A DNA stretch of 56,675 bases from an uncultured Planctomycetales bacterium (GCA_964615635.1 CAZTQK010000002.1:1-56675); one strand, 5' to 3'. Positions 3,787 to 41,612 are shown, numbered from the stretch's first letter. Numbers and translations are program-made. Notes: generated from the letters alone by a model not told the origin.

Positions 3787-5058
3787 TCACCGCGTCTCGG
3801 CCGGCTGCGTTACAGCGTCTGGTTCCTGACGGACACCGCCTGTCGAGAATCGATCTCGCGACCTCGGCGGCGCAACGATAGGGACTGTGTGAACCTTCTG
3901 TCTGCTTCTGTTGTGCCAGACAGACTGGAGCGGAATGGCCGTCGCCAGAACGACCATAGCGGCCAGGTATGGTGCGGCCAAGCCAAACTGGTCGCCGATG
4001 GCCCCGCCGACAAAAGGTCCACCGATGCTGGTCAAACCGACAATAGCCTCGTTCACCGAAACGTATCGGGCCGCGCGGGTCGGATGCACCAGTGAGTGGA
4101 ACACGAAATAGAAGTAGAACGCCCCCGAGTAGACGCCAAAACACGCCGCTGCGAGGTAGAAGGGGAGCGTCGAGTCTGCGGCGGCGAAGAGGGCCAGACC
4201 GGCGAGCCCGCACAGCCCGAATAGAGCGATCGGTATCGGCCTGTACATCCACAGCTTGCCCCGCCCCAGGCCAAGCCCCACCAGGGCCTGAGTGGCGCTC
4301 AAGATCAGCAGGGTCGTGCCCTGGCCTGGTTTGGAGATGTCGAAGGCAGCCGCACTCGAAGGAAAGACGCTCCGAACCAGTGCCATGATCGCGCAGCCCA
4401 ACCCGCTGAAGACCCAAGCCATCCATGCCAGGTCGGGCATGTCGGCATATCGATCGGCAACCGGTGTCTCTGCCGCCTGGATGGTTGGGGCAGCCTCGGC
4501 GAACCGCTTCAGCCGCAAGATCCCACAGGCCATGATCACGGCCAGTAGGCCGTTGACCAGGTGGCAGCTCTGCCAGCCGAAATGCACCCACAGAAATCCG
4601 GCGATGAACGGTCCAAGGGCAAACCCCATGCTCCACGAGAACGTGTACAAGCCGGTGGAATGAGTGATGCTCTTCTTCTGGTTCTCGTCAAGCAACTTCA
4701 TGAAGAACTGAAACGGCGTGAAGAAGAAGGCGGTCGCGCATCCCTGGACGATGCCGAGCAAATACATGGCTGCCATGCCCGGGATGAGAACGTAACCGGC
4801 GGAAACGATGGTGCTGACAACGCAACTGCCGACCAGGATCCAGCCGGCGTTGCGTTTGGTGACCAGTCCGCCGGCGGTCAGTGAGGCAATCATGTAGGCG
4901 ATTGCCCACACGGACATGAAAGCTGCCACAGCCAGAGCACTCGTCTGCATGTCCGCCAAGCGGACCATGCAGACGAAAAAGACTGACGACAGAATCGTAT
5001 CCATCATCAGCGCGAATGAGTAGATCGCCAGGCGGACCATTAGGGCGTCGGCCTCCAT
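3787..5058 (-). CDS. MFS transporter
   Basis: 423 aa with about 12 hydrophobic helices in a two-halves architecture. It sits co-directionally between the glycosidase-like gene and the porin. Confidence 0.8.
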   Translation of the reverse strand: MEADALMVRLAIYSFALMMDTILSSVFFVCMVRLADMQTSALAVAAFMSVWAIAYMIASLTAGGLVTKRNAGWILVGSCVVSTIVSAGYVLIPGMAAMYLLGIVQGCATAFFFTPFQFFMKLLDENQKKSITHSTGLYTFSWSMGFALGPFIAGFLWVHFGWQSCHLVNGLLAVIMACGILRLKRFAEAAPTIQAAETPVADRYADMPDLAWMAWVFSGLGCAIMALVRSVFPSSAAAFDISKPGQGTTLLILSATQALVGLGLGRGKLWMYRPIPIALFGLCGLAGLALFAAADSTLPFYLAAACFGVYSGAFYFYFVFHSLVHPTRAARYVSVNEAIVGLTSIGGPFVGGAIGDQFGLAAPYLAAMVVLATAIPLQSVWHNRSRQKVHTVPIVAPPRSRDRFSTGGVRQEPDAVTQPAETR

Positions 5059-6287
5059 GTCAGCCGGTATACCCGCCCGCTGGTCAGCTTGACATCGAGC
5101 GGTTCACCCAGACGGGTCTTGCCGTCTTCGGAGAGGATCTCAAGGCGTCCCTCTGTCTCGCGGGCCGGCAGGGAGATGCTCTGCCGGTCCGGCCCGAGAG
5201 CACCGGTGGCGGTCAGAGTCTTTCCTTGCCGATCGGTGAAGATGAGTCTCTTCTGCAGCCAGCGGGCGAAGAGGCGGTTACGGTCCAGCGAGGGCACGGC
5301 TCCGGCGCCGTAGACAAACCCAAGAAGCCGGTCGCCGCTGGTGACCCATCCGACCGCGACGATGTACTTGTCGGCATCGTTGCGGCTGACGGCCATCTCG
5401 CGTTGCGTCTCGAATTTCATCCCGTCGTTCGAGAGGGCGTACCAAAGACGGCTGGTGTTGGCGTGAAGGGCCATCAGATAGACAGGCTGACCATCAACGA
5501 CGAAATCGCGAACGTCGTTGACCATCAGGGCGGCGTCGAGGCTGACGCCGTCATACTTGAAGTGCAGGCCGTCATCGGATGATGCCCTGTGGACCTGCAG
5601 GCGGGCCTTGAAGTCGCCGAAGTACAGGCGGTACTTGCCGTTCTCGTGTCGCAGCACGTTCATGCCGTTCATGTCGGCCGCGTTGTACTTGGGATAACCT
5701 TCGATCCGAATGACATCGCTCGCGGTCGCCGGATACGGTGCCGGTTTGCCGTTCCAGGCTGTGCCGTCGGGGCTGGTGAAGATGGCAGGCTTGTTGAGGC
5801 CATTGGCATCCGGATATGCCGTACACGCCATCCGAAAGGAGCCGTCGGGCAGACGAATGGCGTTGACATTGCACACGTGAGTGAACGTGCCGTTTTCGAT
5901 CTCGATGCGCCGCTCGCCGAGATCAATGAAGTCCGCGGTGAACCGGCTGTAGATACGGTCGTTGCCGGTTTGGACGCCGTCCCAGGCCCCATAGAACAGG
6001 CGCCATCCGCCAGGCACTTCGACCGGCGAAGGCGCGTAAATGTTGCGGAACGTGCCGGCTTGACACGGAGCCAGCAGTGGATGCCTTATGTCGGGCACCA
6101 AGTTCAGTGAGCCGGATCGCCAGATGGCCGGATCGAACGGTCCCGCCGACACGCCGTGGATCTCGACCGTGCCCAAATCGGCCTGGCCGGGAATGGCTTC
6201 GATCGTCACCGGCTCGCCGACAACCGGTGCGGCGAACACAATCAGCAGGGCAGCCATCGGGCAACACAGCCGTCTCCTTACAATCAT
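5040..6287 (-). CDS. secreted beta-propeller glycosidase-like protein (GH43/32-like or BNR-like, family not resolved)
   Basis: Start set at MIVRRRLCCPMAALLIVFAAPVVG (signal peptide, AGGAGGA SD). The longer ORF to 6602 reads through a MITE. Recurring SxDGxxW/F blade motifs are present: FTSPDGTAWNG, SSDDGLHFKY, LSNDGMKFET. Confidence 0.6.
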   Translation of the reverse strand: MIVRRRLCCPMAALLIVFAAPVVGEPVTIEAIPGQADLGTVEIHGVSAGPFDPAIWRSGSLNLVPDIRHPLLAPCQAGTFRNIYAPSPVEVPGGWRLFYGAWDGVQTGNDRIYSRFTADFIDLGERRIEIENGTFTHVCNVNAIRLPDGSFRMACTAYPDANGLNKPAIFTSPDGTAWNGKPAPYPATASDVIRIEGYPKYNAADMNGMNVLRHENGKYRLYFGDFKARLQVHRASSDDGLHFKYDGVSLDAALMVNDVRDFVVDGQPVYLMALHANTSRLWYALSNDGMKFETQREMAVSRNDADKYIVAVGWVTSGDRLLGFVYGAGAVPSLDRNRLFARWLQKRLIFTDRQGKTLTATGALGPDRQSISLPARETEGRLEILSEDGKTRLGEPLDVKLTSGRVYRLTWRPTP

Positions 6288-15827: not shown

Positions 15828-16760
15828 TCACACGCGGCGCCGGCGGAGGATCAACAGGCTGCCGGCTGCGAGCAATGCGGCCGTCGCCGGCTCGGGAATC
15901 ACCTCGATGTTGTCGATCAGCGTCACGTTCAGAAGGACGTCATTGGGATCGGTCGACGAACTCGCGTTGGTGTCGCTGTGGCCGAAGAAAATGTTTCCTC
16001 CGCCCAGGGTCACGGTGCTCAGGTCGACCTTTGCCAGCGGCAGCCCGTCGATCGACCAAGTCGCAAAGCCGTCGGCGACATCGATGATTACCCTGCGCCA
16101 TGCGAAGCTGGTCTCACCGACGTCGGTGCTGCCGGTTTGCCCTGGGAAGAGGGCAACCTGTGCACCGGGCGCCGACTGGCCGGTGAAGCCGGCGTAGTAG
16201 GCGTCGCTGTTGTTAATGCTGGTGGCGAAGTAGACCGGATTGCCGGCCGGGTACGAGGTCGATGCGGCCGACGAATACGCGCGGAAGTCCGACGCGGAGC
16301 CGCCGTCCAGCGTCGTGCCGAATGCCACGCTCTCCTTCGGGCTCGAACCGGGCCAGATGGCGACGTTGCCGGCCGTCCCGATGCCGTAGAGCGTGATCTG
16401 CGTTGAGCCGCTGCCGCCAGCCCCCAGGGGACCGACGTAGTTCTGCCACATATCGAAGGACACCGAGTAGTTTCCGGAGAAGCTCTGACCGTTTGGCGAC
16501 ACGCTAAAGCCGGAGAACACTCCCCCGCTGTTGTTGGCCGTCAGCTTCAGGCCGCGGGTGCCCGTCCCGTTCGGGGCGGAAGGCACACCGATCGCTGAGT
16601 AGTCGTAATGAAAGTCCGCCAGCACATCCGACAGGCCCGGATCATTGACAGTCCAGTTCGCTGTCGGGTCCACGTCGAAGTTCTCATTGTACAGGCTTGC
16701 CGAGGTCGAGCCCGCCGACACGGTAGCCGCCAGGACACCCAGGATGATCAGCCGATTCAT
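15828..16760 (-). CDS. PEP-CTERM sorting-domain secreted protein
   Basis: Start at MNRLIILGVLAATVSAGSTSA (AGGAGG SD). The C-terminus is VIPEPATAALLAAGSLLILRRRRV: a PEP motif, a TM helix and a basic tail. Confidence 0.85.
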   Translation of the reverse strand: MNRLIILGVLAATVSAGSTSASLYNENFDVDPTANWTVNDPGLSDVLADFHYDYSAIGVPSAPNGTGTRGLKLTANNSGGVFSGFSVSPNGQSFSGNYSVSFDMWQNYVGPLGAGGSGSTQITLYGIGTAGNVAIWPGSSPKESVAFGTTLDGGSASDFRAYSSAASTSYPAGNPVYFATSINNSDAYYAGFTGQSAPGAQVALFPGQTGSTDVGETSFAWRRVIIDVADGFATWSIDGLPLAKVDLSTVTLGGGNIFFGHSDTNASSSTDPNDVLLNVTLIDNIEVIPEPATAALLAAGSLLILRRRRV

Positions 16761-17005
16761 AATTGTTCCTCCTGTTTGGGTACAGCCTCGACGCCAAGGG
16801 TAGGTCGGCCCGGTGTGAGGCGTGGGTAGACCGATGCGTCCCATCGAACGCGACAAGTAGTCTGCAAATGGCAATGACTGCCTGAGCAATGTGGCCTCTC
16901 CTCCAGACCGTCCTACTATAGGACGCCAGGTTCGGCACTGACCACTTAAAAACCGGGAATCCGTCCGCTCTGGTCGCAGATGGACGGGGCGGCAGCTATC
17001 GGCTT

Positions 17006-17254
17006 ATGCTGCCGCGGGCCACGGCCACGGTATTCGTCGCAGACTATCGTCTGACTACCAAATGCGACGTCGACCAGGCGGATTTCGACGCGTTTCAAGC
17101 CTGCCTGTCCGGGTCTTTTGTCCCTCAGACCGAGCCCACCTGCGCATCTGCTCTGCCGGAAGAGGACAACGACGTGGATCAGGGCGAATGGGCCCGGTTC
17201 ATGGCCTGCTTTACGGGGCCAAGCGATCCCGCGAACTACCGGTGCGCGGAGTGA
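17006..17254 (+). CDS. small ORF made of two dockerin/EF-hand-like repeats; possibly a remnant of a larger secreted protein
   Basis: CDVDQADFDAFQACLSG and DVDQGEWARFMACFTGP resemble the C-terminal tag of the 28295-28900 protein (DSDVDQSDFGIFQRCYG). No signal peptide is present and the start is weak. Confidence 0.35.
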   Translation: MLPRATATVFVADYRLTTKCDVDQADFDAFQACLSGSFVPQTEPTCASALPEEDNDVDQGEWARFMACFTGPSDPANYRCAE

Positions 17255-17661
17255 GCGCCAAGAGAGACGTATCGCCAATGCTTTTTCCCCATCGCATCTC
17301 GCCGATCCGGAAGATTCTGCTGAATCGGTCGCCCGGGCACGAGACCGTGCCCGTAACCTCATGAACGATACGTGGGCCTCCAACGACAACCAGTAGCTCG
17401 CGAGCCGAAGACAGCCATGTCGAGGCGAGTCAATCCTCGCCGCCTGACGCCTGGACCATCCTTGCAGACGACCTCAAAACGGCTGCGGTCGTCGGGGATG
17501 CCCCAGACTTGTGTCCGATAATATCGCTTTTCCTCAGCACATATCGTCGCTCGTTGCAGTTGTCTTTTGACTCCATGCCGAGCAGGCGATGGCCGATAAC
17601 CATTGTGCGGGGTTGCGATGCCAGCCCACGAATGCGTTGCATGTGACCGGGAGGCACTCGG

Positions 17662-17883
17662 TTGGAAGAGGAACGACCAGACAGACTCGGCGCGGTGACA
17701 GCGGACCAGAAGTACCCGCAGGCCGGAGTCCCTGCGCAGGAGAGTGAGATCTCCAGGCAGCCAGATGCTACCGGGACGCGGCGCCACTTCCTTGGCCGCT
17801 CGGCGCGCAAGCTGGCCTATATCTCGCCGGTGGTACTGCTGCTGCGGCCGCGCCCGGCGTGCGCGTCGCGGATCTACTCGTGA
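17662..17883 (+). CDS. candidate precursor/substrate peptide of the PqqD-kinase-NTase cassette (73 aa, ends ...ACASRIYS)
   Basis: TTG start 7 nt after GGGAGG. The stop lies 5-17 nt before the PqqD-like gene. The C-terminal half, TRRHFLGRSARKLAYISPVVLLLRPRPACASRIYS, looks like a Tat-type signal followed by only a few residues and a terminal Ser. Confidence 0.4.
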   Translation: MEEERPDRLGAVTADQKYPQAGVPAQESEISRQPDATGTRRHFLGRSARKLAYISPVVLLLRPRPACASRIYS

Positions 17884-17900
17884 AGTGATTGGCGCGGCCA

Positions 17901-18242
17901 ATGGATCCCATGACGATGTCGTCAGGTTCACGGAAGGACTCATCAGGCGACCAACGGCGCTGGATGCCTATCCGGCGCGAGGGCCTCTGTTGCCGGGCGC
18001 TCGACGATGAAGCGGTTCTCTACGACCCCGCCCATCATGCAGTCCACTACCTGAACCGGACGGCCTGGTTCATCTGGAACTGCTGCAACGGCCGGCGCGA
18101 TGTCGAGGACATTGTCTTAGAGGTCGCCGCGGGATTTGAGCCGAGTGCCGGCCACGACAACCCGCTGGCGGTGATTCGCGACGACGTTCGCTGCACCCTG
18201 TCGAATCTGACGGAGAACGGCCTGATCGAGTCGGCTTTATGA
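17901..18242 (+). CDS. PqqD-family protein (RiPP recognition element-like)
   Basis: LDDEAVLYDPAHHAVHYLNRTAWFIWNCCNGRRDVEDIVLEV...DDVRCTLSNLTENGLIE matches the PqqD/RRE pattern. The start is uncertain (TTG 17889, or ATG 17901/17910/17916). Confidence 0.8.
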   Translation: MDPMTMSSGSRKDSSGDQRRWMPIRREGLCCRALDDEAVLYDPAHHAVHYLNRTAWFIWNCCNGRRDVEDIVLEVAAGFEPSAGHDNPLAVIRDDVRCTLSNLTENGLIESAL

Positions 18243-19195
18243 TCGAACCCGCAATCTCTAACACGGTTGAAACGTCTGCTTCGTCGCGTGCTCGTTCCAG
18301 CTTTCGCTTGTTCGGTGGCTGGCCCGAAGCTCGCTGCTATCACATTGGACCCGTGCCCGTGTCGCTCAGCAGCGTCCTGCCAGGTGTCGCGGCGGACTTT
18401 CACGAGCTGTACGGCACCTACGAGGTCGAGGCACCCGCCGGCAACGAGTTCGAAATACGAGTCATCGCTAAGCGGTCCGCACGATCGCTTCGGCGTTACT
18501 ATCATGTGGTCGCCAACGGGGAAAGCCTGTTCGCGATGCGGAACGAAAACGAGATCCTTCCGCACGTGGAATGGGCGATCAACACCATGGTTGCCACGCG
18601 GATGTCGCAGTATCTGCAGATTCACGCGTCGGTTGTGGCCCGCGACGGCAGGGCAATCATCTGTCCGGGCCAGCCGGGCCAGGGCAAGACGACTTTGGCG
18701 GCCGCATTGCTCACGCGGGGTTGGTCGTACCTGTCTGACGAATTCGCGCTGTTCAATCCTCAGACGCAGTTGCTCGAGCCTTATCCCAAAGCCTTGTGCA
18801 TCAAGGCGGGTTCCTTCGATGTCCTGCGCCGAATGCGCCTGCCGATCGATGTTGATCGAGTCTACTACAAGGGTGAAAAGGGACGCGTGACGCTGCTCGA
18901 CCCTCTCAAGATTCGGCCGAACATCGTCGCGGGTCATTGCCGGTTGGATATGGTGATCTTCCCGGAGGTTAACCATTCGTCCACTCCGGTCATTGAGAAC
19001 GTCTCCCGGGCCCAGACGGTCTTCGAGCTGACGCGTTGCTCCTTCAATTTCGGGAAGTTCCGCGAGCCCGGATTCAACCTGCTGGCCGACGTCGTCGAAC
19101 AAGTCGGCTGCTACCGACTTCGATGCGGGCATCTCGGGACGACTTGCGATCTGGTTGAGGCATTCTTCTCCCGCCAAAGCGGCCAGGAGACATAG
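18239..19195 (+). CDS. HPr kinase/phosphorylase-like P-loop protein (HprK-related kinase)
   Basis: ATGA start/stop overlap with the PqqD gene. Walker A is in an HprK C-domain-like context: AIICPGQPGQGKTTLAAALLTRGWSYLSDEFALF. Confidence 0.8.
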   Translation: MIEPAISNTVETSASSRARSSFRLFGGWPEARCYHIGPVPVSLSSVLPGVAADFHELYGTYEVEAPAGNEFEIRVIAKRSARSLRRYYHVVANGESLFAMRNENEILPHVEWAINTMVATRMSQYLQIHASVVARDGRAIICPGQPGQGKTTLAAALLTRGWSYLSDEFALFNPQTQLLEPYPKALCIKAGSFDVLRRMRLPIDVDRVYYKGEKGRVTLLDPLKIRPNIVAGHCRLDMVIFPEVNHSSTPVIENVSRAQTVFELTRCSFNFGKFREPGFNLLADVVEQVGCYRLRCGHLGTTCDLVEAFFSRQSGQET

Positions 19196-19196
19196 G

Positions 19197-20372
19197 ATGC
19201 GTCGCGGAGACAGCGGACAGGTCGGCCAAAGGCTTGACAGTCTGCTTGCGGGCTGCCTCACGGATCGTGCGTTGTTGGCGGTTGAGGAAGTCGCTCGCGA
19301 CGGACTGTGGGAGCAGATGGTCGGGTATGCCTGCTCGGCCGGGGTTGGCGGGGCGATCGCCCGCCAGATGGCTGCACGCAATGTGGATCTCCCGCACGCC
19401 GCATCGATGCAACTCAACTCTTACAGACAGCACGTGGCGGCGGCAACGACCTATGGGATGGCGAAAAGCGAGTCGGCATTGGCCCGTCTGCAGGAAGCCG
19501 GGATCCCGTTCCTGGTGCTCAAGGGGGCGGCACTGAATACGGTGCTGTACGACGGACCGGGCCTCCGGCCAATGATGGATGTCGATCTGCTGATTCGGCC
19601 TTCTGACGCGCAGCGAGCCGACGCCGCACTCGCAAGCTTCGGCTGCCGTCGGGGCCCCGATCTGGTCAATGAAAACTTCTACCCGCGTTTCTACTATGAG
19701 CGGGAGTACTTCCTGCCCTGCCGTCCGGAGGTCAAGATCGACCTGCACGTGCGGCCGTTCCGTCCGCTGCGATACGCCGCCATTCTGCCCGACGACGTCT
19801 TGTGGGACAAACCGATGTCGGTCCGTTACGGCCGCTTGACGGTACTGATCCCGAACGTTGAGAACATGCTGATCCACTTGGCCGTCCACGCCGCCTGCCA
19901 CGGCGCGGGCGAGCTGAAATGGCTCTACGATATCAAGCTGTGGCTGGAACGATACGGAGATCGTCTTGATATCGATGAGCTGGTCAACAAATGCCGCAAG
20001 TGGAAGCTCACCTGGCCGGCACGTGTGGCGTTGGAGCAGGTCGGACGGCTGTTCAGTGAATCCTCCATCTATCTGCAGCGGGTGTTGGATGCATTGCGTC
20101 GGCAACCGGCTGGCTGGCAAGATCGACTCGCGCTGGCCCAGTGCCCTCGTGACGCGGCCCATCCGCTGGCCGCCGTCGCGGTGAACGTGCTCTGTACGCC
20201 GGGCGTCCGATTCAAGCTTGGCTACCTTCGGGCCGTGCTGCTCCCTGGCCGATCGCACCTGGCCCAACTCTACCACGGCCGCCATCCCGGCTGGCCGCTC
20301 GTGGCCCACGCCGTTCGGATCGGCCGTCGCCTGACACGGCGATTCTCCCGCACCTCCGCCGAGCACGCGTAG
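19197..20372 (+). CDS. uncharacterised nucleotidyltransferase family protein (PF14907/NTP_transf_5-like)
   Basis: The ATG lies 1 nt after the kinase stop, with GGAG upstream. FLVLKGAALNTVLYDGPGLRPMMDVDLLIRPSD is the family hallmark (LKG...R..DxDLL). Confidence 0.75.
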   Translation: MRRGDSGQVGQRLDSLLAGCLTDRALLAVEEVARDGLWEQMVGYACSAGVGGAIARQMAARNVDLPHAASMQLNSYRQHVAAATTYGMAKSESALARLQEAGIPFLVLKGAALNTVLYDGPGLRPMMDVDLLIRPSDAQRADAALASFGCRRGPDLVNENFYPRFYYEREYFLPCRPEVKIDLHVRPFRPLRYAAILPDDVLWDKPMSVRYGRLTVLIPNVENMLIHLAVHAACHGAGELKWLYDIKLWLERYGDRLDIDELVNKCRKWKLTWPARVALEQVGRLFSESSIYLQRVLDALRRQPAGWQDRLALAQCPRDAAHPLAAVAVNVLCTPGVRFKLGYLRAVLLPGRSHLAQLYHGRHPGWPLVAHAVRIGRRLTRRFSRTSAEHA

Positions 20373-20462
20373 CGGGGCGTCGATCTCGCTTGTCTCGATA
20401 ATCTCGCGTATCCTATCACCCATGTGAGATTGTCATTCCGTTTCAGTCAGACGAGGTGCGAC

Positions 20463-22370
20463 ATGGCATTCAGGACGGTCCTTCTGGCAGCAGTGACGGT
20501 TTCCGTGGTCTCGATGGCGTCGGCCGGTGAAGCGGGCATCGCCAGACTGAAGGCGGTTGCCCCGACGCAGGTGAAACTGAACGATTCGTTCTGGGCTCCG
20601 CGGCTGGAGGTCAACCGGACGGTCACGCTGCCGCACAATATCAAGATGTGCGAGGAGACCGGCCGGATCTCCAACTTCGACAAGGCCGCCGGCAAGATGG
20701 AGGGCAAATACGAAGGTGCTTATTTCAACGACTCGGACGTGTACAAGGTGCTGGAAGGCGCTGCCCACATCCTGGCCGCTCACCCGGACAAGGACATGGA
20801 GGCCCGTATCGCCGCGATCATCGCCAGAATCGCCGCCGCCCAGCAACCCGACGGCTATCTCAACGCCTACTACACCGTGATGGAGCCGGACAAGCGTTGG
20901 ACGGACCTGCCGAAGATGCACGAACTGTACTGCGCCGGACACATGACCGAGGCGGCCGTGGCCTGGGCCGACGCGACCGGCAGAACGGACTTCCTCGACG
21001 TCGCTCGCAAATTCATACACCACATTGAGGGGATCTTCGGCTTCGACAAGCGGCATGGTGTCCCCGGCCACGAGGAGATCGAACTGGCCCTCGTCAAGCT
21101 GTACCGCAAGACCGGCGAGGAGCGATACCTCAAGCTAGCCGAGTACTTCCTCGCCGCCCGCGGCACCAAACCCGCGCCGAAATCGGAGTACCTTCAAGAC
21201 CACATCCCGATCAAACAGCAGAAAGAGATCGTCGGCCACGCGGTGCGGGCGATGTACCTCTACTCGGGCGTGACCGACGTCACAGCAATCACCGGCGACA
21301 AGGAATATCTGCAGACTCTCGACACCATCTGGCACGATGTCGTCACGCGCAAGATGTACATTACCGGCGGCGTCGGCGCCCGACACGAGGGTGAGGCCTT
21401 CGGCGGGGCATACGAGTTGCCCAACGACTCGGCGTACGCCGAGACCTGCGCCGGCATCGGCCTGGCGTTCTGGGCCCACCGGATGCTGATCCTGCACGGT
21501 GAGAGCCGCTTTGCCGACGTCCTCGAGCGAGAGCTGTACAACGCGTTTCCGTCTTCAGTTTCGCTCAAAGGCGACACCTACTTCTACGTCAACCCGCTCT
21601 CGAGCAAGGGCGAGCACCACCGCAAACCGTGGTATGGTTGCGCCTGCTGCCCGACGAACATCGTTCGGGTGATGCCGCAGGTGCCGGGCTATGCGTATGT
21701 CCAATCTGACGACGGCATCTGGATCAACCTGTACATGGCCGGCGAGGCGACCATTACGCTCAAGTCCGGCGAGGTCAAGCTTGCGGTTGACACGAAATAC
21801 CCCTGGGACGGCCGGGTCAAGATCAACGTCGCCCCCAAGACGCCTGCCGAGTTCGTGATCCATCTCCGCGTGCCCGAATGGTGCAAGAAAGCCTCGGTCA
21901 GCGTGAACGGCAAACCCCTTGCCGGCCCGACCATGGACAAGGGGTACGCGGTGATCCGGCAGCAGTGGAAGGCCGGCGACGTGATCGAGATGGATATGCC
22001 GATGCCGGTTCAGCGGGTCCAGGCCCATCCGAACGTGGCCGCCAACCGGGGGCGAATCGCGTTGCAGCGAGGCCCGATTGTCTTCTGTCTCGAAGCGGTC
22101 GACAACGACGGCAAAGTGTTTGATCTGACTCTGCCGCGAGACTCTGAACTCAAGACCGAGTCCAAGCCCGACATGCTCGGCGGCATCCTGACGATCAGAG
22201 CCAAGGGCCTCAAATACCCGGCTCGCGACTGGAAGGACAAGCTCTATCAGCCGGCGCCCGCGCAGGCCGAGCCGGCCGAGCTGACGGCCATTCCCTACTG
22301 CGTCTGGGACAACCGCGCACCGGGCGAGATGACCGTGTGGATTCCGGAGGTCACCGGGCTGTCCAATTGA
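20463..22370 (+). CDS. glycoside hydrolase family 127 (beta-L-arabinofuranosidase-like, DUF1680)
   Basis: Signal peptide MAFRTVLLAAVTVSVVSMASA. GH127 motifs are present: YCAGHMTEAAVAW, GHEEIELALVKLY, GHAVRAMYLYSG, YAETCAGIG, CACCPTNIVR. Confidence 0.9.
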   Translation: MAFRTVLLAAVTVSVVSMASAGEAGIARLKAVAPTQVKLNDSFWAPRLEVNRTVTLPHNIKMCEETGRISNFDKAAGKMEGKYEGAYFNDSDVYKVLEGAAHILAAHPDKDMEARIAAIIARIAAAQQPDGYLNAYYTVMEPDKRWTDLPKMHELYCAGHMTEAAVAWADATGRTDFLDVARKFIHHIEGIFGFDKRHGVPGHEEIELALVKLYRKTGEERYLKLAEYFLAARGTKPAPKSEYLQDHIPIKQQKEIVGHAVRAMYLYSGVTDVTAITGDKEYLQTLDTIWHDVVTRKMYITGGVGARHEGEAFGGAYELPNDSAYAETCAGIGLAFWAHRMLILHGESRFADVLERELYNAFPSSVSLKGDTYFYVNPLSSKGEHHRKPWYGCACCPTNIVRVMPQVPGYAYVQSDDGIWINLYMAGEATITLKSGEVKLAVDTKYPWDGRVKINVAPKTPAEFVIHLRVPEWCKKASVSVNGKPLAGPTMDKGYAVIRQQWKAGDVIEMDMPMPVQRVQAHPNVAANRGRIALQRGPIVFCLEAVDNDGKVFDLTLPRDSELKTESKPDMLGGILTIRAKGLKYPARDWKDKLYQPAPAQAEPAELTAIPYCVWDNRAPGEMTVWIPEVTGLSN

Positions 22371-23561: not shown

Positions 23562-26465
23562 TCAACTTGCCACGATATTGACCATCCGGCTGGGGATACA
23601 GATCACCTTGCGGACGGTCTTTCCGGCCAGAAACTTCTGGACCTGTTCGTCGGCCATGGCCGCAGCCTGCATAGCGGATTCAGACTGGGCCTGATCGGCC
23701 GGCAGCTTGATCCGCGAGCGGACCTTGCCGCTGATCTGCACCGGGATCTCGACCTCCGCCTCGACGCACAGGGCCTCATCGTAGGTCGGCCAGTCTTCAA
23801 ACGCGATGGACCGCTGCCAGCTCGAACCGGCCATCTGCTGCCACAGTTCCTCGCACAGATGCGGGGCGATGGGTGCCAGCAGCTTGAGGAACGGCTCGGC
23901 TATTTCGCGAGGCAGCGTGTCGCCCTTCATCGCGTTGTTCAGCTCGATCAACGCGGCAATCGCCGTATTGAACCGAAGGCCCTGCATGTCGCCGGTCACC
24001 TTGCGGATGGTTCGGTGCAGCAGACGTCGCAGCGAATCCTCGGCCGGGGCGTCGGTGACCTTCAATGATCCGTCCTCAGTGATGAATCTCCGCCACACGG
24101 CCAGAAGAAAGCGGCTCATGCCGACGATGTCGCGAACGCTCCAGGGCTTGCTGGCTTCCAGGGGGCCCATGTACATCTCATAGACCCGCAACGTGTCGGT
24201 CCCGTATTCGTGGCAGATGTCGTCCGGGGCTACCGCATTCTTGAGACCCTTTCCCATCTTGCCATACTTCTCGAAGACCTCCTCACCCTGCCAGAAGTAC
24301 TGCTGACCCTTCTCGCCCTGGACCTCCGGGGCAGGCTTCCCGTTGGCGCTGACCACCTCGACGACTGGTACACGTATGCCGTTGGCTTTCTCGTAGTAGT
24401 AGGCCTGGATGTACCCTTGATTGAACAACCGTCCGAACGGCTCGGCGGTGCTGACGCAGCCGAGGTCGAAAAGCACCTTGTGCCAGAACCGCGAATAGAG
24501 CAGATGCAACACGGCATGCTCGGCCCCGCCGACGTACAGATCGACGCCGCCGCACGGCGGCGCTCCCGGATGGTTCTTCGGGGCCATCCAGTAGTTCTCG
24601 ATTTGCGGGCCGACGAACGCCTGGTCGTTGCGGTTGTCGAGGTACCGCAAGTAATACCAGCACGAACCCGCCCACTGCGGCATGGTGTTCAGCTCGCGAT
24701 AGAACTCCCGCGCTTCGGTTCCCGCCGGTCGAGACTGCCCGGGCTTGAGCAGCTTGACCATGCCGGCATCGGTCACGTAGCCGCAGATGTTGACCCAGTC
24801 CTTCGCACGCCCGAGCGGGGGCGCGGGCGGGGCGTTGGGATCATCCGATGCCTGCGGACGATAATCGTCGATGGCCGGCAGTTCCACGGGCAGCTCGCTC
24901 TCGTCCAATGCCAGCACCTCGCCGGTCTTCGGGTCATGCACGATGGGGAAAGGCTCACCCCAGTAACGTTGACGGCTGAACAGCCAGTCTCGCAGCTTGT
25001 AGTTGACCGCCCCCTTGCCCAGGTTCTTCTGTTCGAGCCAAGTGGTGATTCGCTTCTTGAATTCGGCGGTGGTCAACCCGTCGAACTCGCCTGAGTTGAC
25101 CGCAACACCGTCCCCGACAAAGCCCCGCCAATCCTCGTTGCCCGGCGGCCGAACGACCTGGATGATGGGAAGGTTGAACTTCTGGGCAAACTCGAAATCG
25201 CGGGTGTCATGGGCCGGCACGGCCATGATCGCCCCGGTTCCGTAGCCCATCAGAACATAGTCGGCCACCCAGATCGGAATCTTCTCCCCGTTGACCGGGT
25301 TGATCGCATAAGCACCCGTGAAAACGCCTGTCTTCTCCTTGGTGTCGGCGGTGCGGTCGAGATCGGACTTGTGTTTCGCTTCTTCCACATAGGCACGAAC
25401 GGCTCCACGCTGTTGCGGCGTCGTGATCTGGCTCACAAGCTCGTGCTCCGGCGCCAGCACCATGTAGGTTGCCCCGAACAGCGTGTCCGGCCGGGTGGTG
25501 TAGACGCGGATGACCTCTTCGGAGCCGTCAATGGCGAATTCGACCTCTGCCCCCTCGCTGCGGCCGATCCAGTTTTGCTGCATCAGCTTGATCGCCTCGG
25601 GCCAATCGACCGGATCGAGATCGCGTTCGAGACGGTCGGCGTATTTGGTGATCCGCAGCATCCACTGCCGCAACGGCCGTCGGTAAACGGGGTGATTCCC
25701 TCGATCGCTTCAGCCCTCGTTGGTCACTTCTTCATTGGCCAGCACCGTCCCCAGGGCCGGGCACCAGTTCACCGGAATCTCGTCGATGAACGCCAGTCGT
25801 TGCCCGTCGATGACTGCCCGGCGCTCGGCCGGCGAAAGCTCCTCCCACTTGCTGATCCCCACCGGACTGCCCGTGATGGCCGAGATGGTCGGCCACGTTG
25901 CGACTTCACCATCCGGAGTCACCCCGAGGCGGCCCTGCTCCAGCTTGTGGATCAGTCCGCTGATCGGCCGGGCGGCGTCGGCCTCCGGGTCGTACCAACT
26001 GTTGAACAGCTTGAGGAAGATCCATTGGGTCCATTTGTAGAAAGCGACATCGGTGGTGGCCAGCTCGCGGTCCCAGTCGTAGCCGAGGCCAAGCCGCTGC
26101 ATCTGGGCCCGCATGTTGTCGATGTTCTTCTGGGTGGTTTCCCGCGGCGGTACGCCGTGCTCGACGGCGAACTGCTCGGCCGGAAGGCCGAACGCGTCGT
26201 AGCCCATCGGATGCAGGACATTGTACCCGCGCATGCGCAAGAAGCGAGCGTAGATGTCCGTGGCGATGTAACCGAGCGGGTGGCCGACGTGCAGACCCAC
26301 GCCGCTGGGGTACGGGAACATGTCCAGCACGTAGAACTTCGGCTTGGCCGCGTCGAAGTCCGCGTCTCCCGGCTGGGGTGTGCGGAAGGTCTTCTGCTCG
26401 ATCCAGTACTTCTGCCACTTCGCCTCAATGGCGGCGAAATCATAGCGCCCGCGTTCCGAACTCAT
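23562..26465 (-). CDS. leuS: leucine--tRNA ligase, interrupted by a single in-frame TGA at 25710-25712
   Basis: The N-terminal ORF (25710-26465) carries [12 protein letters not shown] (HIGH) and ends ...[19 protein letters not shown]. The same frame continues after the TGA as [27 protein letters not shown]..., and the [10 protein letters not shown] (KMSKS-type) motif lies further on. Confidence 0.9.
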
Positions 26466-26938: not shown

Positions 26939-28273
26939 ATGTCATCGGGTAGCCAGAGTGATTCCAATCCGTCCGACTCGCCGTTCATGCTCCGCCGGAC
27001 GTTCCTGAAGAAGTCAGCCAGTGCCGCCGGTGCGGTTGGCGGCGCTCTAAGCATGGCCGGCATGGCTGTGACAGGGGGTTGCGCGGCGACCGGGAGCACC
27101 GGTCTGGCCGCGAGTGCGTCTGCGGCCAAGAGCCGCCGCATCGGCCCCAACGATCGGATCTCCATCGGCATCATCGGTTGCGGCGGACGCGGCAGTCAAC
27201 TGATGCAGGACATCCGCGCCGTGGCTAAAGATCGCAATGCCGAGATTACCGCCGTCTGCGACGTTTGGAAGATCAACCTCAACAACGCCGCCGCCAAGGC
27301 CAAGGAATGGTCCGGCAAGCAGCCGCGGACGTCCACGCGGTTCGGCGACATACTGGCCCTGAACGACGTCGACGCGGTGGTAATCGCGACGCCCGACTTC
27401 GGCCACACGCCGATCATGATCGAGGCCCTGAAGTCCGGCAAGGACGTCTACGTGGAAAAGCCGATGTCGATGGAAATCGGCAAAGCCAACGAGGCCCTCG
27501 ATCTCGCCCGGAAATACGAACGCGTCGTCCAGGTGGGCACGCAGCGTCGCAGCGAGGGCCGCTTCAAGGCGGCGGCCAGGGAGTTCGCCAGCGGCGTTCT
27601 CGGCAAGCTCAACCGCATTTCCGCGGCGATGAACGTCAACCATGCACGATGGGCGCGTGCCTACGCCGACTGCAAGCAGAGTGATGTTGACTGGGACGCC
27701 TTCCTGTTCAACCGGCCGAAGCGACCGTTCGACGCAAGCCTGCTGCGTCAATGGCACTTCTACAAGCTGTGCACCAACGGTCTGTCCGGTCTCTGGATGG
27801 CTCACTATTCCGACTCGGTTCACATGGTCACGGGCTCGAAATACCCGACGAGCGCTGTCGCCCACGGTGGGGTCTACGTCTGGAAAGACGGACGCGAACA
27901 CACCGATACGTTCCATGCCTTGCTTGAGTACCCGGAGGGCTTCCTCATGAGTTGGGGCATGGGTCTGGGTAACAGCTTTGGCGTGCACTTCCATCTGTGC
28001 GGCACGGACGGCACCATGGATCTGGAAAAATGGACCGTCTCCGACGAAGGCAAGGTCAGCGCCGCCAAGGCCAAGAGTCGCGAGATCAAGGGTGAGCAGA
28101 ATGAGTCGCACATGGGCAACTGGCTTGACTGTATTCGCTCGCGAAAGCGACCCAACGCCGACATCGAATACGGCCACCAGCACGCCGTGGCCACGATCAT
28201 GGCCGCCGCGGCCCTCGAGACGGGACACAAGCACCTCTACGATCCGCAGAAACGGGAGATGCGGGCGGTGTGA
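26939..28273 (+). CDS. Gfo/Idh/MocA-family oxidoreductase with Tat signal
   Basis: Twin-arginine signal MLRRTFLKKSASAAGAVGG. Rossmann N-terminus ISIGIIGCGGRGSQLM and EKPMS motif. Confidence 0.85.
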   Translation: MSSGSQSDSNPSDSPFMLRRTFLKKSASAAGAVGGALSMAGMAVTGGCAATGSTGLAASASAAKSRRIGPNDRISIGIIGCGGRGSQLMQDIRAVAKDRNAEITAVCDVWKINLNNAAAKAKEWSGKQPRTSTRFGDILALNDVDAVVIATPDFGHTPIMIEALKSGKDVYVEKPMSMEIGKANEALDLARKYERVVQVGTQRRSEGRFKAAAREFASGVLGKLNRISAAMNVNHARWARAYADCKQSDVDWDAFLFNRPKRPFDASLLRQWHFYKLCTNGLSGLWMAHYSDSVHMVTGSKYPTSAVAHGGVYVWKDGREHTDTFHALLEYPEGFLMSWGMGLGNSFGVHFHLCGTDGTMDLEKWTVSDEGKVSAAKAKSREIKGEQNESHMGNWLDCIRSRKRPNADIEYGHQHAVATIMAAAALETGHKHLYDPQKREMRAV

Positions 28274-36563: not shown

Positions 36564-36693
36564 GGTCCGCGACAGATTAGGCGGGCATGCTCTGAGGGTG
36601 CCACTGGCGGCTTGCCCGCCAGTGCATGCCTGAGAAGCAGAAGACACTGGTAGACGAGCTGCCAGTGGCACCCGTCTAAAGTGTCACGGACCC
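36564..36693. repeat. chimeric repeat: family-1 termini flanking a family-3 core
   Basis: Left GGTCCGCGACAGATTAGGCGG (family-1 end). Core GGGTGCCACTGGCGGCTTGCCCGCCAGTGCA...CTGCCAGTGGCACCC (family 3). Right AAAGTGTCACGGACCC (family-1 end). Confidence 0.7.
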
Positions 36694-36800
36694 ACCGACA
36701 GCAAGAAGCGAGTTTGCGATTGTGGTCCCTTTGGGGAATTGGTAAAATATGGAACGATGTTTGGGTCACGGCATGTGCCGGGCTTAAGGGAGGAAAGACG

Positions 36801-37385
36801 ATGCGGAAACTGGCGATGTTGGGCGTGGTGTTGGCCACGTGCATGTCTTGGGCGTCTACGGTCAGCGCGGCGACGGTAACGGTCTACACGGACAAGGCGC
36901 AATGGGAGAGCGCCTTGGGCGGGCAGTTCCTGACCGAGGATTTCGCCGACAGTCAACTGAACGACGGAGTCAGCTTTACGTCCACGGAATCCGGCCACAT
37001 AAACCCTGCGGAGGAATGCTACCAGGATGTTCTGGCTTCTCAGATCCAGAATGAACCTATGACCATCTGGAGCTTCAGCCCCGAAATGGCCGCCTACGGC
37101 GGGGATTGGACTCTAGGTGGCCCCGGCGGTTCCGGCAACAGCCTACTGGTCTACATCGCTGACTTCTCTCTTTACGTGGGAGCTATTTCCAACAACTACG
37201 GCGGCGAATTCTGGGGCTTCATCTCTGATACTCCGTTCACCTCGGTCAAATTGGTCGGGGGACCGGGCAGCAATCAGCAGAACTATCGTTTGGACAACAT
37301 GGTTTACTCACAAGTTCCCGAGCCGGCTACAATAAGCCTGTTGACCCTGGGCGGGCTGGTGCTGATTCGCCGCCGCAGAGCCTGA
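36801..37385 (+). CDS. PEP-CTERM sorting-domain secreted protein
   Basis: Start at MRKLAMLGVVLATCMSWASTVSA (GGGAGGAAAG SD). C-terminus VPEPATISLLTLGGLVLIRRRRA. Confidence 0.85.
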   Translation: MRKLAMLGVVLATCMSWASTVSAATVTVYTDKAQWESALGGQFLTEDFADSQLNDGVSFTSTESGHINPAEECYQDVLASQIQNEPMTIWSFSPEMAAYGGDWTLGGPGGSGNSLLVYIADFSLYVGAISNNYGGEFWGFISDTPFTSVKLVGGPGSNQQNYRLDNMVYSQVPEPATISLLTLGGLVLIRRRRA

Positions 37386-37499: not shown

Positions 37500-38180
37500 T
37501 CATTCTGAAACCTTTTTCTTGATATGCCGGATGATTTGTCCGGTGACGAGGAAGATTACGTCTTCGGCGATGTTGACAGCGTGGTCGGCGGTGCGCTCGA
37601 GGTTCTTGGCGATGGAGAGGACGTCCAAATGGGCGGCCATGGCCTCGGGCGACCTCGATGCATCTGTGACGAGCTTCCGGATGAAGTCGCCGTAGAAGGC
37701 GTCGATGATCTCGTCCTCGGTCATGACTCTCTCGGCCGCCTCGCGATCGAGCGTGGCATAGGCGTTGATCGCCCCGTGCAGCATGCGGCGCACGACGGGG
37801 TAGATCTCTTTCAGGTCGTTGCGGGCCTCAACGAGCATGTCGGGCCCCAAATGGGCGGCCCGCTCGGCGATGTTGACGCCGCAGTCGGCGATCCGCTCCA
37901 GGTCGTTGTTGACCTTGAGAATGGTGCATAGACGCCGCATGTCCGAGCCCATCGGTTGGAAAAGGGTCATCAGACGAACGGCCTCGGCCTCAATGGCCAC
38001 CTCCTCGGCGTCGATCTCGCAGTCGCGGTTGACGACCCGGCGAGCGAGGTTGTGGTCGGCATAGGTGACGGCCTCGCAGGCCTCGAGCAGCATGTCTTCG
38101 ACGGCCGCCCCCATTCGCAGGGAGCGCCGCATCAGTTCGTCCAGCAAGTTGATAAAATGCGTAGCCATATGATCATCCAA
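37500..38180 (-). CDS. phoU: phosphate signalling complex protein PhoU
   Basis: Two PhoU repeats with D..VN..E..IDA and [12 protein letters not shown] / [13 protein letters not shown] motifs. It is the last gene of the pst operon. Confidence 0.9.
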
Positions 38181-39021
38181 ATCGTCCGGTGATGTAGTCC
38201 TGTGTCTTCTGCTCGCTCGGGCTGGTGAACAGCTTCGACGTCGAGTCGAACTCGATCAACTCGCCCATGTACATGAACGCGGTCATGTCGGACACGCGGG
38301 CGGCCTGCTGCATGTTGTGGGTGACGATGATCACAGTGTAATGGCCGCGGAGCTCGCCGATCAGGTCTTCGATGCGGTCGGTGGCGATCGGATCGAGCGC
38401 CGAGGTCGGTTCGTCCATCAGCAGCAGTTCCGGCTGAACGGCCAGTGCCCTGGCGATGCACAGCCGCTGCTGCTGGCCGCCGGAGAGGCCCAGCGCGTTT
38501 TCGTGCAGGCGATCCTTGACCTCGTCCCACAGGGCCGCCCGCTTGAGGCTCTCTTCGACAATGGAGGCCAGGTCGCCGCGGCCGCGGATCCCGTGGATGC
38601 GCGGCCCGAAGGCAACGTTTTCGAAGACTGTTTTGGGGAACGGGTTGGGCTTCTGAAACACCATGCCTACGCGGCGGCGCAGGGCCGTCACGTCGATTCG
38701 CGGTCCGTAGATTTCCTCACCGTCGAGCATCAGCCGGCCGTCGGTGCGGCAGCCGGGAATCAGATCGTTCATGCGGTTGATGGCCCGCAGCAGCGTGCTC
38801 TTGCCGCATCCGCTCGGCCCGATGATGGCGGTCACCTTGCCGGTGGGGAGGGCCATGGTGACTTTCTTGACCGCCTCGTTGTTGCCATAAAAGACGGAGA
38901 ATTCCTCGGCGGTCACATGGGACGTCTGCAGGGCATGGGCAACGCCGGAGTCCCCCGAAGTGTCACGTCTGGTTGTCACCGTCACCGTCCGTTCCATCAT
39001 CGCCACCGCCATCGTAATCAT
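38173..39021 (-). CDS. pstB: phosphate ABC transporter ATP-binding protein PstB
   Basis: Walker [10 protein letters not shown], signature [15 protein letters not shown] and Walker [17 protein letters not shown] overlap with pstA. Confidence 0.95.
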
Positions 39022-40367
39022 CCTCGAAGCCGTTTTGAAATCTTCGCCCGTGCATAGATCGCCGCCGAGTTCAGCAGGAGCACCAGCATGACAAGGGTGA
39101 AGACCATACCGTACTGAACGTGTCGGATCTCGTCGACCCGCTGGTGCTCGGTGGCAAGGTTGTAGATGTTCCAGGGCAGGGCGGGCGTCGGCTGGCTGAG
39201 GGTCTCCTTGAGGGAGAGAGGCAGGCCCACGCTCACCGCGGCCGTGTAGATGATGGGAGCTGTTTCACCCGCGGCCCGGCCCATGCTGATGACGATACCG
39301 GTCAAGATGCCAGGAAGAGCCGAGGGCAGAATGACCCTCACGATGGTCCGCCATTTGCCCGCGCCCAGGCTCAGCGAGGCCTCTTTGTAGGTATGCGGCA
39401 CGGCGCGAATGGCCTCCTCCGACGCCCGTATCACCAACGGCAGAATCAGGATCGACAGAGTCAGCGCACCGGCCAAGACGCTCTTGGTTTGCGATACCCC
39501 GACCGCGTTGATGAAAAACGCCAGTCCGAACAGGCCGAAGACGATGCTCGGCACGCCCGCCAGCGTGCTGATGCACGTCCGGATCAACTGAACCAGCCTG
39601 CTGGTTGCCGGGGCGTACTCCACCAGGTAGATCGCCGACACCACGCCCATCGGGACGGCGAAGATGATCGCTCCGACCGTCAGGTAGAACGTTCCCAACA
39701 GCTCCGCCCAGACACCGCCGAAGTAGTGGGAGTCATATGATGTCTGTGTCAGGAACCCCCAGTAGACGGTCACTCTGGGCAGCAGCATCCTGTCCAGGTT
39801 CTGTTCGACGTAGGCAAATAGCGGCTCGAGCGAGGTTCCTTTGAATTCGTCGACCCGCGGCACATCGATCGGTGTGCCCATCTCATTCGGATTGGAGTAG
39901 TCGTACTGCTTGTCGTAGAGCAGGTGATGCAGCACGACGTGGGCCCGGTCCCAGCGGGTCTGACCATACTGATCACGATACATCACCGGCCGTGGCTCGC
40001 CGGGCGCCGGCCCAAGCAGGAGCCGCAGCTCGTCTTTCACCGCCTGGAGGGGTTCGGCGTACTTGCGGGAAGCAAGGAAGCCCTGCGACTCGATCTCCTT
40101 TTCGAAGGCGGCCACCATCTCATAGATCGGCTTGCGGGCCTCCAGCACGCCGGCCATCTCGGCTTCGAGCTTGTCCTTGTCGCCCGCCTCGAACAACTCA
40201 AGTTGCATGCGGCGGTGTTCCACTGTGCCGCGGAAGATGAACGCTCCAATGCCGCCGACAGCAATCGGAGTCAGCAACACCAGCAGGAACGCCGCCAGCA
40301 GCAGGACCGAGCTGACACCCATGGAGGTGAAGAGGCGGTCGGTCAGTTTGCGCGACGTCAATGCCAT
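39018..40367 (-). CDS. pstA: phosphate ABC transporter permease PstA (long form)
   Basis: Permease EAA-type region [28 protein letters not shown], six TM helices and a large N-terminal loop. It follows pstC with a 2-nt gap. Confidence 0.9.
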
Positions 40368-40369
40368 GG

Positions 40370-41560: not shown

Positions 41561-41612
41561 GCACACAACCTTTTGACAACCTGACCGCCGGGCGCCTCTG
41601 GTGGCTTGGCCG

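Follow-up and report, generated by a model that had tools for sequence, protein, structure and literature searches.

A Planctomycetota gene cassette that probably encodes a stand-alone RiPP-like pathway for a linear, serine-modified peptide

Linear polyphosphorylated peptides (LPPs) are products of Bacillota, made by the lppA-K-B-S-D-N cluster of Paenibacillus alginolyticus (Popov et al., Nat Commun, May 2026, PMC13381572). LPP clusters combine the recognition element (RRE) of a ribosomally made peptide with post-translational modifications (RiPP), LppB, with an HprK-like kinase (LppK), an NTP transferase (LppN), a SipW-like signal peptidase I (LppS) and an MsbA-like pump (LppD), and they have no cyclase (PMC13381572). 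The leader consensus is YxxPxVLxHQxIxFETxxS, numbered as L-10, F-3, E-2 and T-1 with cleavage past T-1, and Ser+3 is the sole phosphorylation site, where it is multiply phosphorylated (PMC13381572). By this numbering, Y, P, V and L of the motif fall at -16, -13, -11 and -10. A related chemistry is known from paeninodin/pseudomycoidin-type systems, in which the HprK-family kinases PadeK, ThcoK and PsmK act on linear lasso precursors and (poly)phosphorylate their C-terminal Ser, and the PF14907-like enzyme PsmN is required to add one or two hexoses onto that phosphate (PMC6993621, PMC9266682). Here we describe a cassette on a 56,675-nt stretch of DNA from an uncultured Planctomycetales bacterium (GCA_964615635.1, CAZTQK010000002.1:1-56675), the whole of which is called the window below. 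At 17662-20372 on the + strand it carries four co-directional, tightly packed open reading frames (ORFs) for a small peptide, a PqqD protein, an HprK-related kinase and an NTP_transf_5 (PF14907) enzyme with a nucleotidyltransferase (NTase) fold. Judged by sequence and by analogy with these systems, the cassette is probably a stand-alone, RiPP-like route to a linear peptide that is phospho-modified on serine and exported; it would form the Planctomycetota branch within the HPr-rel-A system and be a mechanistic relative of LPP biosynthesis.

The precursor gene (17662..17883, +) begins with TTG, preceded by a GGAGG 8 nt upstream, and its 73-aa product is MEEERPDRLGAVTADQKYPQAGVPAQESEISRQPDATGTRRHFLGRSARKLAYISPVVLLLRPRPACASRIYS. 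An alternative in-frame GTG at 17695 (+) would give 62 aa; NCBI annotates a 62-aa form of the precursor in a close relative (P0244), a length that would fit this GTG, although the N-terminus of that relative is MS where the window reads VT. The peptide stop, TGA at 17881-17883, lies 5 or 17 nt ahead of the PqqD gene (17889..18242, +), depending on whether the latter starts at TTG 17889 or at ATG 17901. The PqqD and kinase (18239..19195, +) genes share an ATGA overlap at 18239-18242, and the kinase stop, TAG at 19193-19195, is separated by 1 nt from the ATG at 19197 of the PF14907 gene (19197..20372, +). The four ORFs, their strand and these junctions agree with an initial annotation of the window, and the single translationally coupled unit that it proposed is supported as a tight unit that joins peptide and RRE to the HprK-like kinase and the PF14907 enzyme. 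In a scan of 16800-20700, no sigma-70 promoters or intrinsic terminators near the cassette rose above shuffled expectation.

The peptide ORF is, as its codon changes indicate, a genuine coding sequence. Over the last 36 codons, close relatives show 10-11 synonymous against 2-5 non-synonymous codon changes, a mark of purifying selection, and the predicted core SRIYS is unaltered in three related loci (L001, L010, L011) despite synonymous changes in the DNA. Related loci, 78 in number, were collected by scanning one genome per GTDB species, and a hidden Markov model (HMM) built from five upstream ORFs located a homologous small ORF 5' of PqqD in about 70 of them; in L001, L008 and L009 the gene caller had skipped this ORF and the precursor HMM recovered it. 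The small ORF noticed upstream of the trio is thus conserved across orthologous trios. These loci yield 62 unique leader-plus-core sequences. In a set of 1.84 billion representative proteins, a profile built on 65 precursors matched 203 clusters at E <= 1e-3, nearly all of 52-147 aa. Database copies of the precursor (78 homologues) are all annotated ‘hypothetical protein’. Ten precursors searched against Pfam and NCBIfam fell into no family and gave only sub-threshold matches to twin-arginine translocation (Tat) signals, while the precursor profile had no match among PDB chains. By these searches the small ORF is a member of a conserved, uncatalogued precursor family.

The most informative features of the peptide, absent from the initial annotation, are its twin-arginine/AxA signal-peptide-like architecture and the YxxPxVL motif embedded in it. 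The window leader runs from T39-RRHFL44 (17776..17793, +), which is the S/T-R-R-x-F-L portion of the Tat consensus, through the RRE-binding-type motif Y53-ISPVVL59 (17818..17838, +) and R62-P-R-P65 to A66-C-A68 (17857..17865, +), a predicted signal-peptidase-I-type site 29 residues past the first Arg. It is followed by the tail S69-RIYS73 (17866..17880, +), the predicted core, in which Ser+1 and the C-terminal Ser+5 are candidate phospho-acceptors. Counted back from A68, the predicted cleavage position, Y53, P56, V58 and L59 stand at -16, -13, -11 and -10, which is exactly the LPP register. In alignments of the precursors R40, R41, F43 and L44, as well as Y53, P56 and L59, are invariant or nearly so; A66 and A68 are nearly invariant, the distance from RR to AxA is fixed, and S69 (+1) is kept in at least 90% of the 65-sequence alignment. 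Of 199 sequences retrieved from the database, 191 have RR followed by [YFW]xxPx[VIL]. Among these 191, S or T precedes RR in 161, Tyr stands at -16 from the end of the A-x-A motif in 185, positions -3 to -1 read A-x-A in 159 and small-x-small in 175, 169 carry S, A or G at +1, and in 182 there is a Ser somewhere from +1 to +5. After the cleavage motif, the core has a median length of 10 aa. We also considered the reverse polarity, with the N-terminal acidic region as core and the conserved part as follower. This was rejected because the LPP register and the C-terminal cystine-knot cargo of some relatives, described below, put the core after AxA.

The second gene encodes a discrete PqqD-family RRE, a peptide chaperone that matches PF05402 with 47.7 bits (E = 1.9e-12). 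Searches of the PDB with the single PqqD, kinase and NTase sequences returned only chance matches (E ~1). A profile of 40 cassette PqqD orthologues, on the other hand, matched TbiB1 (1.7e-11), TfuB1/FusB1 (2.8e-11), PqqD (8e-9), LppB (9X8Z, 2.9e-8) and PbaB1 (9X90, 9e-7). In LppB, N33 hydrogen-bonds the kink at P-13, and a hydrogen bond of D70 is also needed for high-affinity leader binding (PMC13381572). N52 of the window protein aligns with LppB N33 and is kept in 37 of the 40 orthologues; D95 aligns with D70, a position held by Asp in 24 and by His in 10. Given the identical leader register, the RRE profile matches and the N52 and D95 equivalents, the RRE-leader recognition module can be classed as the lasso/LPP type.

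Both modification enzymes look catalytically competent in sequence and model, because the kinase P-loop and D167-E168, and K109-G110, D128, D130, D182 and H184 of the NTase, are invariant. The kinase matches TIGR04352 HprK_rel_A at 194.7 bits (E = 1.7e-57; curated cut-off 200), and the precomputed Pfam family of its homologues is PF27840 ‘ScmC’. Its initial description as HPr-kinase-like is borne out by the TIGR04352 score and by a match to the HprK/P fold, but the match to the classical HprK C-domain PF07475 is marginal (E = 0.02). Its AlphaFold2 model, built on an alignment of 58 homologues, has a predicted local distance difference test (pLDDT) score of 90.3, and its only fold matches with E <= 0.001 are ATP-dependent phosphoenolpyruvate carboxykinase (2.8e-7) and HprK/P (4e-4). 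The P-loop GQPGQGKTT (residues 144-152; 18668-18694) and YLSDEF (164-169; 18728-18745) were both found as quoted at the outset, and G149, K150, T152, D167 and E168 are invariant in the 58 homologues. For the NTase, the PF14907 match is secure (143.1 bits, E = 1.4e-41), and the family assignments first made for this protein and for PqqD both hold. Its LKGAAL (19518-19535) and DVDLL (19578-19592) motifs, also quoted earlier, lie within residues 108-132, and KIDLH is found at 19734-19748. The NTase model (pLDDT 91.9, alignment of 50 homologues) matches the folds of MenT1, ANT(2'')-Ia (5cfs, 4xje) and LnuA, and FKRP more weakly; ANT(2'') structures are the templates reported for PsmN. K109, G110, D128, D130, D182 and H184 are invariant in those 50 homologues.

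The wider distribution of the cassette bears on whether the peptide and the enzymes belong together. A collection of 5.8 billion proteins holds 174 close homologues of the kinase, and the named ones come nearly all from metagenome-assembled genomes of Phycisphaerae/Planctomycetota. Likewise, about 70 of the 78 loci are from Planctomycetota, with a few labeled Acidobacteriota, Alpha-/Deltaproteobacteria or Actinomycetota and seven from Casimicrobiaceae/Competibacteraceae. Six annotated neighborhoods each comprise a 69-75-aa ORF with no Pfam match, PqqD, kinase and NTP_transf_5, and their flanks are wholly different each time. In an all-against-all clustering of ORFs from the 78 loci, the cassette genes alone are near-universal; among accessory families, a VKOR + DsbA fusion recurs in 16 loci and a GT4 glycosyltransferase in 8, and no other family recurs. 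The order peptide-PqqD-kinase-NTase is found in 32 loci, NTase-peptide-PqqD-kinase in 7 and NTase-peptide-VKOR-PqqD-kinase in 5, and further arrangements exist. The four genes co-occur through these rearrangements, which argues for a functional linkage.

A different view would be that the target of the trio is something else, for instance a sugar, a lipid or the C-terminus of a protein, and that the small ORF is an unrelated secreted fellow traveler. The link between enzymes and peptide is indirect, what PF14907 enzymes do is ill defined, and the single reconstitution of LPP biosynthesis showed no activity for LppN (PMC13381572). Against this, the small ORF is found together with the trio at almost every locus, across rearrangements and unrelated contexts, and it carries a lasso/LPP-type RRE-binding motif in the exact LPP register. 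A discrete PqqD is not known to have a role beyond peptide binding. We consider a substrate other than the peptide very unlikely.

Lasso peptide biosynthesis is the other obvious frame for such enzymes. A lasso peptide needs a macrolactam ring of 7-9 residues, closed on Asp or Glu, together with a tail. The predicted core of the window peptide, SRIYS, has five residues and no Asp or Glu. In a Pfam scan of about 40 further ORFs of the 56.7-kb window, about 10 of which had no Pfam match at all, we found no Asn_synthase, Transglut_core3, Peptidase_S24/S26 or peptide ATP-binding cassette (ABC) exporter; the only ABC components are those of a Pst-type phosphate importer (38173-42670). Cyclase, B2 protease and signal-peptidase families were also missing within 10 kb on either side in the six annotated relatives, and no ABC exporter is conserved beside the cassette. 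Across the 78 loci there was no recurring lasso cyclase/B2 protease, SpI-like peptidase or MsbA-like exporter family, and no cassette contained an exporter gene. The absence of lasso machinery from the window, pointed out in the initial annotation, therefore holds for the ORFs tested and extends to related loci. The locus could still be an ordinary lasso tailoring module with its cyclase and B2 protease encoded elsewhere in the genome: an RRE, an HprK-like kinase and a PF14907 enzyme are typical of paeninodin/pseudomycoidin-type clusters, lasso B1 proteins are the nearest matches of the RRE profile, and the search for machinery covered the window and related loci rather than the whole genome. 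Nevertheless, neither cyclase nor protease is present in these regions, and cores with a family median of 10 residues are too short for ring plus tail. For these two reasons the lasso-cluster reading was rejected, and a cluster completed from elsewhere in the genome is extremely improbable. The cassette stands alone, with neither cyclase nor protease in the window or at any of the related loci examined, and a linear peptide, named earlier as a possible substrate, is the best candidate for it.

The cores themselves fall into two types. Among 60 locus-derived precursors with a delimitable core, 39 have short cores of 4-13 residues, composed of 32% Ser and 17% Gly, and 25 of these 39 end in Ser. 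The other 21 have longer cores, mainly with the six-Cys spacing C-x6-C-x5-CC-x3/4-C-x4/6-C, which is the inhibitor-cystine-knot framework. Of 19 loci with Cys-rich cores, 15 have a VKOR + DsbA fusion gene, as against none of 44 with short cores (Fisher p = 3e-11, uncorrected for phylogeny), and the GT4 glycosyltransferase shows the same division (8 of 19 versus 0 of 44). The fusion protein has 410-540 aa and its gene lies between precursor and PqqD or upstream, often followed by GT4 (loci L039, L043, L045, L049-L051, L057, L060, L061, L063, L064, L066, L068, L072 and L076). Many related PF14907 enzymes (P0169, P0172, P0175, P0180, P0186 and others; for example in L049) carry a C-terminal SET domain of the protein lysine methyltransferase type (PF00856), which suggests an extra modification in those systems.

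These core types also bear on the site of modification. The C-terminal Ser, first put forward as the target on the model of lasso kinases, is frequent in short cores (20 of 30 unique sequences) and absent at that position from all 21 long cores. It stands as one candidate only, as it is Ser within +1 to +5 that is common to all core types. By analogy with Ser+3 of LPP, Ser+1 may be at least as likely a phospho-site as Ser73, and the data do not choose between Ser69 and Ser73.

Whether the peptide leaves the cytoplasm can be approached from its leader and from its relatives. The Tat-like elements of the leader comprise T39-RRHFL, a hydrophobic stretch L51-L61, a basic R62-P-R64 and A66-C-A68. 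Two enzymes of the window have canonical Tat signals, so the organism evidently uses the Tat pathway: a GFO/IDH/MocA oxidoreductase (26939-28273, +) with the RRxFL signal LRRTFLKK… (LRRTFLKKSASAAG) and a xylose-isomerase-like TIM-barrel protein (51579-52655, -) with ARRDFLVSS…AKA (ARRDFLVSSVAAAG). VKOR/DsbA enzymes make disulfides outside the cytoplasm. Precursors with Cys-rich cores are very probably exported, as the VKOR-DsbA protein encoded beside them would act there. Alternatively, the chemistry could be the same and the leader serve recognition alone, with RRxFL and YxxPxVL as a bipartite dock for kinase, NTase and RRE and with a product that is cytoplasmic or handled by unlinked, non-general machinery. 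RiPP leaders are often conserved just for enzyme recognition, the n-region here is long and acidic, and the h-region is atypical, being short, Pro-containing and preceded by R49-K50, with TIGR01409 scores below threshold. Yet the canonical Tat substrates of the window also have long n-regions, and in the family the S/T-RR-x-F-L motif goes together with a basic c-region, with AxA at a constant spacing and, as counted above, with S, A or G at +1. In addition, cysteine-knot cores are tightly tied to the extracytoplasmic VKOR-DsbA, and a dedicated peptidase and exporter are absent although LPP and lasso clusters encode them. A leader devoted purely to recognition is, in our view, unlikely.

The exported-peptide pathway that we favor could proceed as follows. 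First, the 73-aa precursor would be made, and the discrete PqqD/RRE would bind the YxxPxVL strand at residues 53-59, as motif identity, register and RRE homology suggest. The RRE-bound precursor would then be shown to the HprK-like kinase, which, by analogy with LppK, PadeK and PsmK, would (poly)phosphorylate a core Ser, either Ser+1 or the C-terminal Ser of SRIYS. Next, the PF14907 enzyme may extend the phosphate by a further group, such as the hexose that PsmN adds. After release from the RRE, the peptide would enter the housekeeping Tat (or Sec) route, and signal peptidase I would cut past A68, leaving a modified pentapeptide outside the cytoplasm. As no peptidase or exporter is encoded and the leader is signal-like, housekeeping Tat/Sec and LepB would replace the dedicated functions.

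A more specific version of this pathway, which we offer only tentatively and by analogy, gives the leader a dual role as Tat export signal and RRE dock. PqqD would act like a Tat-proofreading chaperone that masks YxxPxVL until the AxA-adjacent Ser is phospho(glyco)sylated, and housekeeping Tat and signal peptidase I would stand in for the dedicated exporter and protease found in every other RRE-dependent pathway. The idea that an RRE masks a hydrophobic segment until modification ends, as redox enzyme maturation proteins (REMPs) do for Tat leaders, is speculative.

Several points weigh against the exported-peptide pathway. The leader is not a textbook Tat signal, with R49-K50 between RRxFL and an uncharged stretch of about 11 residues that contains a Pro, and TIGR01409 is not reached (no match for the window peptide; 13.0 bits for L003, the highest-scoring relative, where the cut-off is 16.7). 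A phosphorylated or glycosylated Ser+1 might hinder signal peptidase I. The short-core subtype of the window has no VKOR-DsbA neighbor, so that the periplasmic argument is borrowed from relatives. The inactivity of LppN weakens the role of PF14907 outside PsmN. His at the LppB-D70 equivalent in 10 of the 40 RRE orthologues shows no clean covariation with the leader Tyr; when Asp or His at this position is compared with Tyr, Phe or Lys at leader -16, His goes with all three Phe leaders and also with seven Tyr leaders. Finally, which Ser is phosphorylated, what the NTase makes, where the leader is cut and how the peptide is exported are all inferred from sequence and analogy.

If the proposed pathway is correct, (poly)phosphorylation or phosphoglycosylation of Ser in linear ribosomal peptides would extend beyond Bacillota to Planctomycetota and to the HPr-rel-A loci of Proteobacteria, Acidobacteriota and Actinomycetota, and the computationally defined HPr-rel-A system would acquire a family of substrates whose recognition motif and cleavage site are defined. 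It would also be an RRE-dependent pathway that cedes leader removal and export to general secretion, a minimal three-enzyme design for engineering secreted modified peptides. The cysteine-knot subtype, with its VKOR-DsbA, GT4 and SET-fused NTases, would indicate bacterial knottin-like peptides with an unusual N-terminal modification. Should the leader have the dual role described, the products would be phosphoglycopeptides of 4-13 residues or, in relatives, N-terminally modified cystine-knot mini-proteins, and the substrate class of HPr-rel-A would be identified across several Gram-negative phyla.

Other ORFs of the window encode porins, MFS and SSF transporters, AlaRS, LeuRS, a GH127 enzyme, a CBM9/CARDB protein, a tRNA-editing protein, a CYTH protein, the GFO/IDH/MocA oxidoreductase, an extracytoplasmic function sigma factor, a VIT-VWA protein, a nitrilase-type hydrolase, PhoU with PstSCAB, a two-component system, a 1360-aa AAA protein, a rhomboid protease and an ADP-ribosylglycohydrolase. 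A PEP-CTERM-type protein (15828-16889, -; C-terminus IPEPATAALLAAGSLLILRRRRV) is encoded directly upstream of the cassette, a neighbor that is not kept in relatives, and a second one at 36681-37385 (+) matches PF07589. The rhomboid protease gene (52829-53965, -) is distant from the cassette; in two related loci, L003 and L004, a rhomboid gene lies at 4448-5665, about 4 kb upstream of the cassette, which is probably a coincidence. The leuS gene (23562-26465, -) is broken by one in-frame TGA at 25710-25712, where L001 and L011 have Arg; this could reflect a sequencing error, a strain-level pseudogene or recoding in an essential gene. The 1360-aa ORF (45855-49937, +) has an N-terminal AAA_22 match, a weak DUF948 match and nothing else that was recognized.

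Among described systems, the paeninodin/pseudomycoidin clusters share with the cassette an HprK-family kinase, a PF14907-like enzyme with an ANT(2'')-like fold and DxD, a B1-type RRE and, in many of the short cores, a terminal Ser. They differ in that the cassette has no cyclase, B2 protease or ABC exporter and a core too short for a lasso, and in that Ser at +1 to +5, rather than the C-terminal Ser, is conserved across the cassette family. SynChlorMet clusters likewise pair an HprK-like protein, ScmC (PF27840), with the PqqD-like ScmD, which is the top NCBIfam match of the window PqqD (32.5 bits). The window scores are, however, far under the TIGR04249 and TIGR04248 cut-offs (100 and 125 bits), there are no radical-SAM genes nearby and the precursor is of another type.

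The HPr-rel-A system, which the initial annotation had named, does exist as TIGR04352 (HprK-related kinase A) and TIGR04353 (PqqD family peptide chaperone). TIGR04352 is the best NCBIfam match of the window kinase, and the adjacency of PqqD and kinase is shared, but the window proteins score below the cut-offs: the kinase as given above, and PqqD with 24.4 bits against TIGR04353 (curated cut-off 35), which the orthologues in L003 (39.1) and L064 (40.7) exceed. Kinase scores against TIGR04352 reach 381 bits in Competibacter and 346 in Casimicrobiaceae and only 163-195 among the Phycisphaerae kinases (relatives 163-176), and the window/Phycisphaerae cassette is therefore a sister branch of the curated HPr-rel-A equivalog. 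In Competibacter and Casimicrobiaceae, the upstream ORF has 108-203 aa, more than its Phycisphaerae counterpart, with an ‘RRRL(V/L)xG...P..xTL’ leader in which the Tyr of YxxP is missing. Directly 5' of PqqD, bona fide TIGR04352 loci of Casimicrobiaceae (L073, L075, L077), Competibacteraceae (L079-L081, L083) and Actinomycetota (L084) have an ORF whose leader is of the triple- or twin-arginine kind; some of these loci have no NTase, and L084 has two Cys-rich copies with ‘RRSLIKRAG’ leaders. Substrates with twin-arginine leaders seem to characterize the HPr-rel-A system as a whole. No publication describing an HPr-rel-A substrate was found in the literature searched.

General secretion signals on RiPP precursors have precedents in the bufferins, with Sec signal peptides (PMC11626156), and in lipoprotein-pathway RiPPs (PMC13056109), where such a signal takes the place of a dedicated peptidase and exporter. 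REMPs such as TorD and DmsD are chaperones of Tat leaders (PMC3316669, PMC3712460), and the putative cassette chaperone resembles them in that a small protein would occupy the hydrophobic segment of a twin-arginine leader ahead of export. The enzymes and the chemistry are different in all of these, and the cassette chaperone is an RRE with no cofactor insertion, so that the likeness is one of analogy only.

The likeness to LPP is the most detailed. Both have a discrete RRE homologous to lasso B1/LppB, an HprK-like kinase and an NTP transferase with no macrolactam synthetase, a YxxPxVL leader motif at -16 to -10 and an early core Ser (+1 in the window, Ser+3 in LPP); LppB N33 and D70 are matched by N52 and D95, and the signal-peptidase-type cut that removes the LPP leader has its counterpart in the predicted signal peptidase I motif at the end of the window leader. 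On the other hand, the RRE similarity to LppB is at the profile level only (E = 2.9e-8). The cassette has no SipW-like, archaeal-type LppS peptidase, whether among the window ORFs, in the six neighborhoods or as a recurring family across the 78 loci, and no MsbA-like LppD exporter. Its leader of about 68 aa has twin arginines and AxA, whereas that of LPP has 27 aa and ends in FET; its cores have 4-13 aa or are knottin-like, compared with about 45 aa; and its hosts are Planctomycetota, along with Proteobacteria, Acidobacteriota and Actinomycetota, while LPPs are stated to be confined to Bacillota (PMC13381572). Literature searches on a Tat signal with an RRE, or on RiPPs with Planctomycetes, found no description of the cassette, which is weak evidence given that few subscription journals were covered. 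The earlier remark that no product or function is known for this gene trio is outdated in part, as the trio without a cyclase has been characterized for LPP in Bacillota (PMC13381572). The cassette is thus not categorically new, because LPP is an experimentally characterized analogue. It is, so far as the searchable literature shows, an undescribed variant, set in another phylum, with a leader that combines signal-peptide and RRE-binding elements, without a peptidase or exporter of its own, and with cores that are ultrashort or knottin-like.

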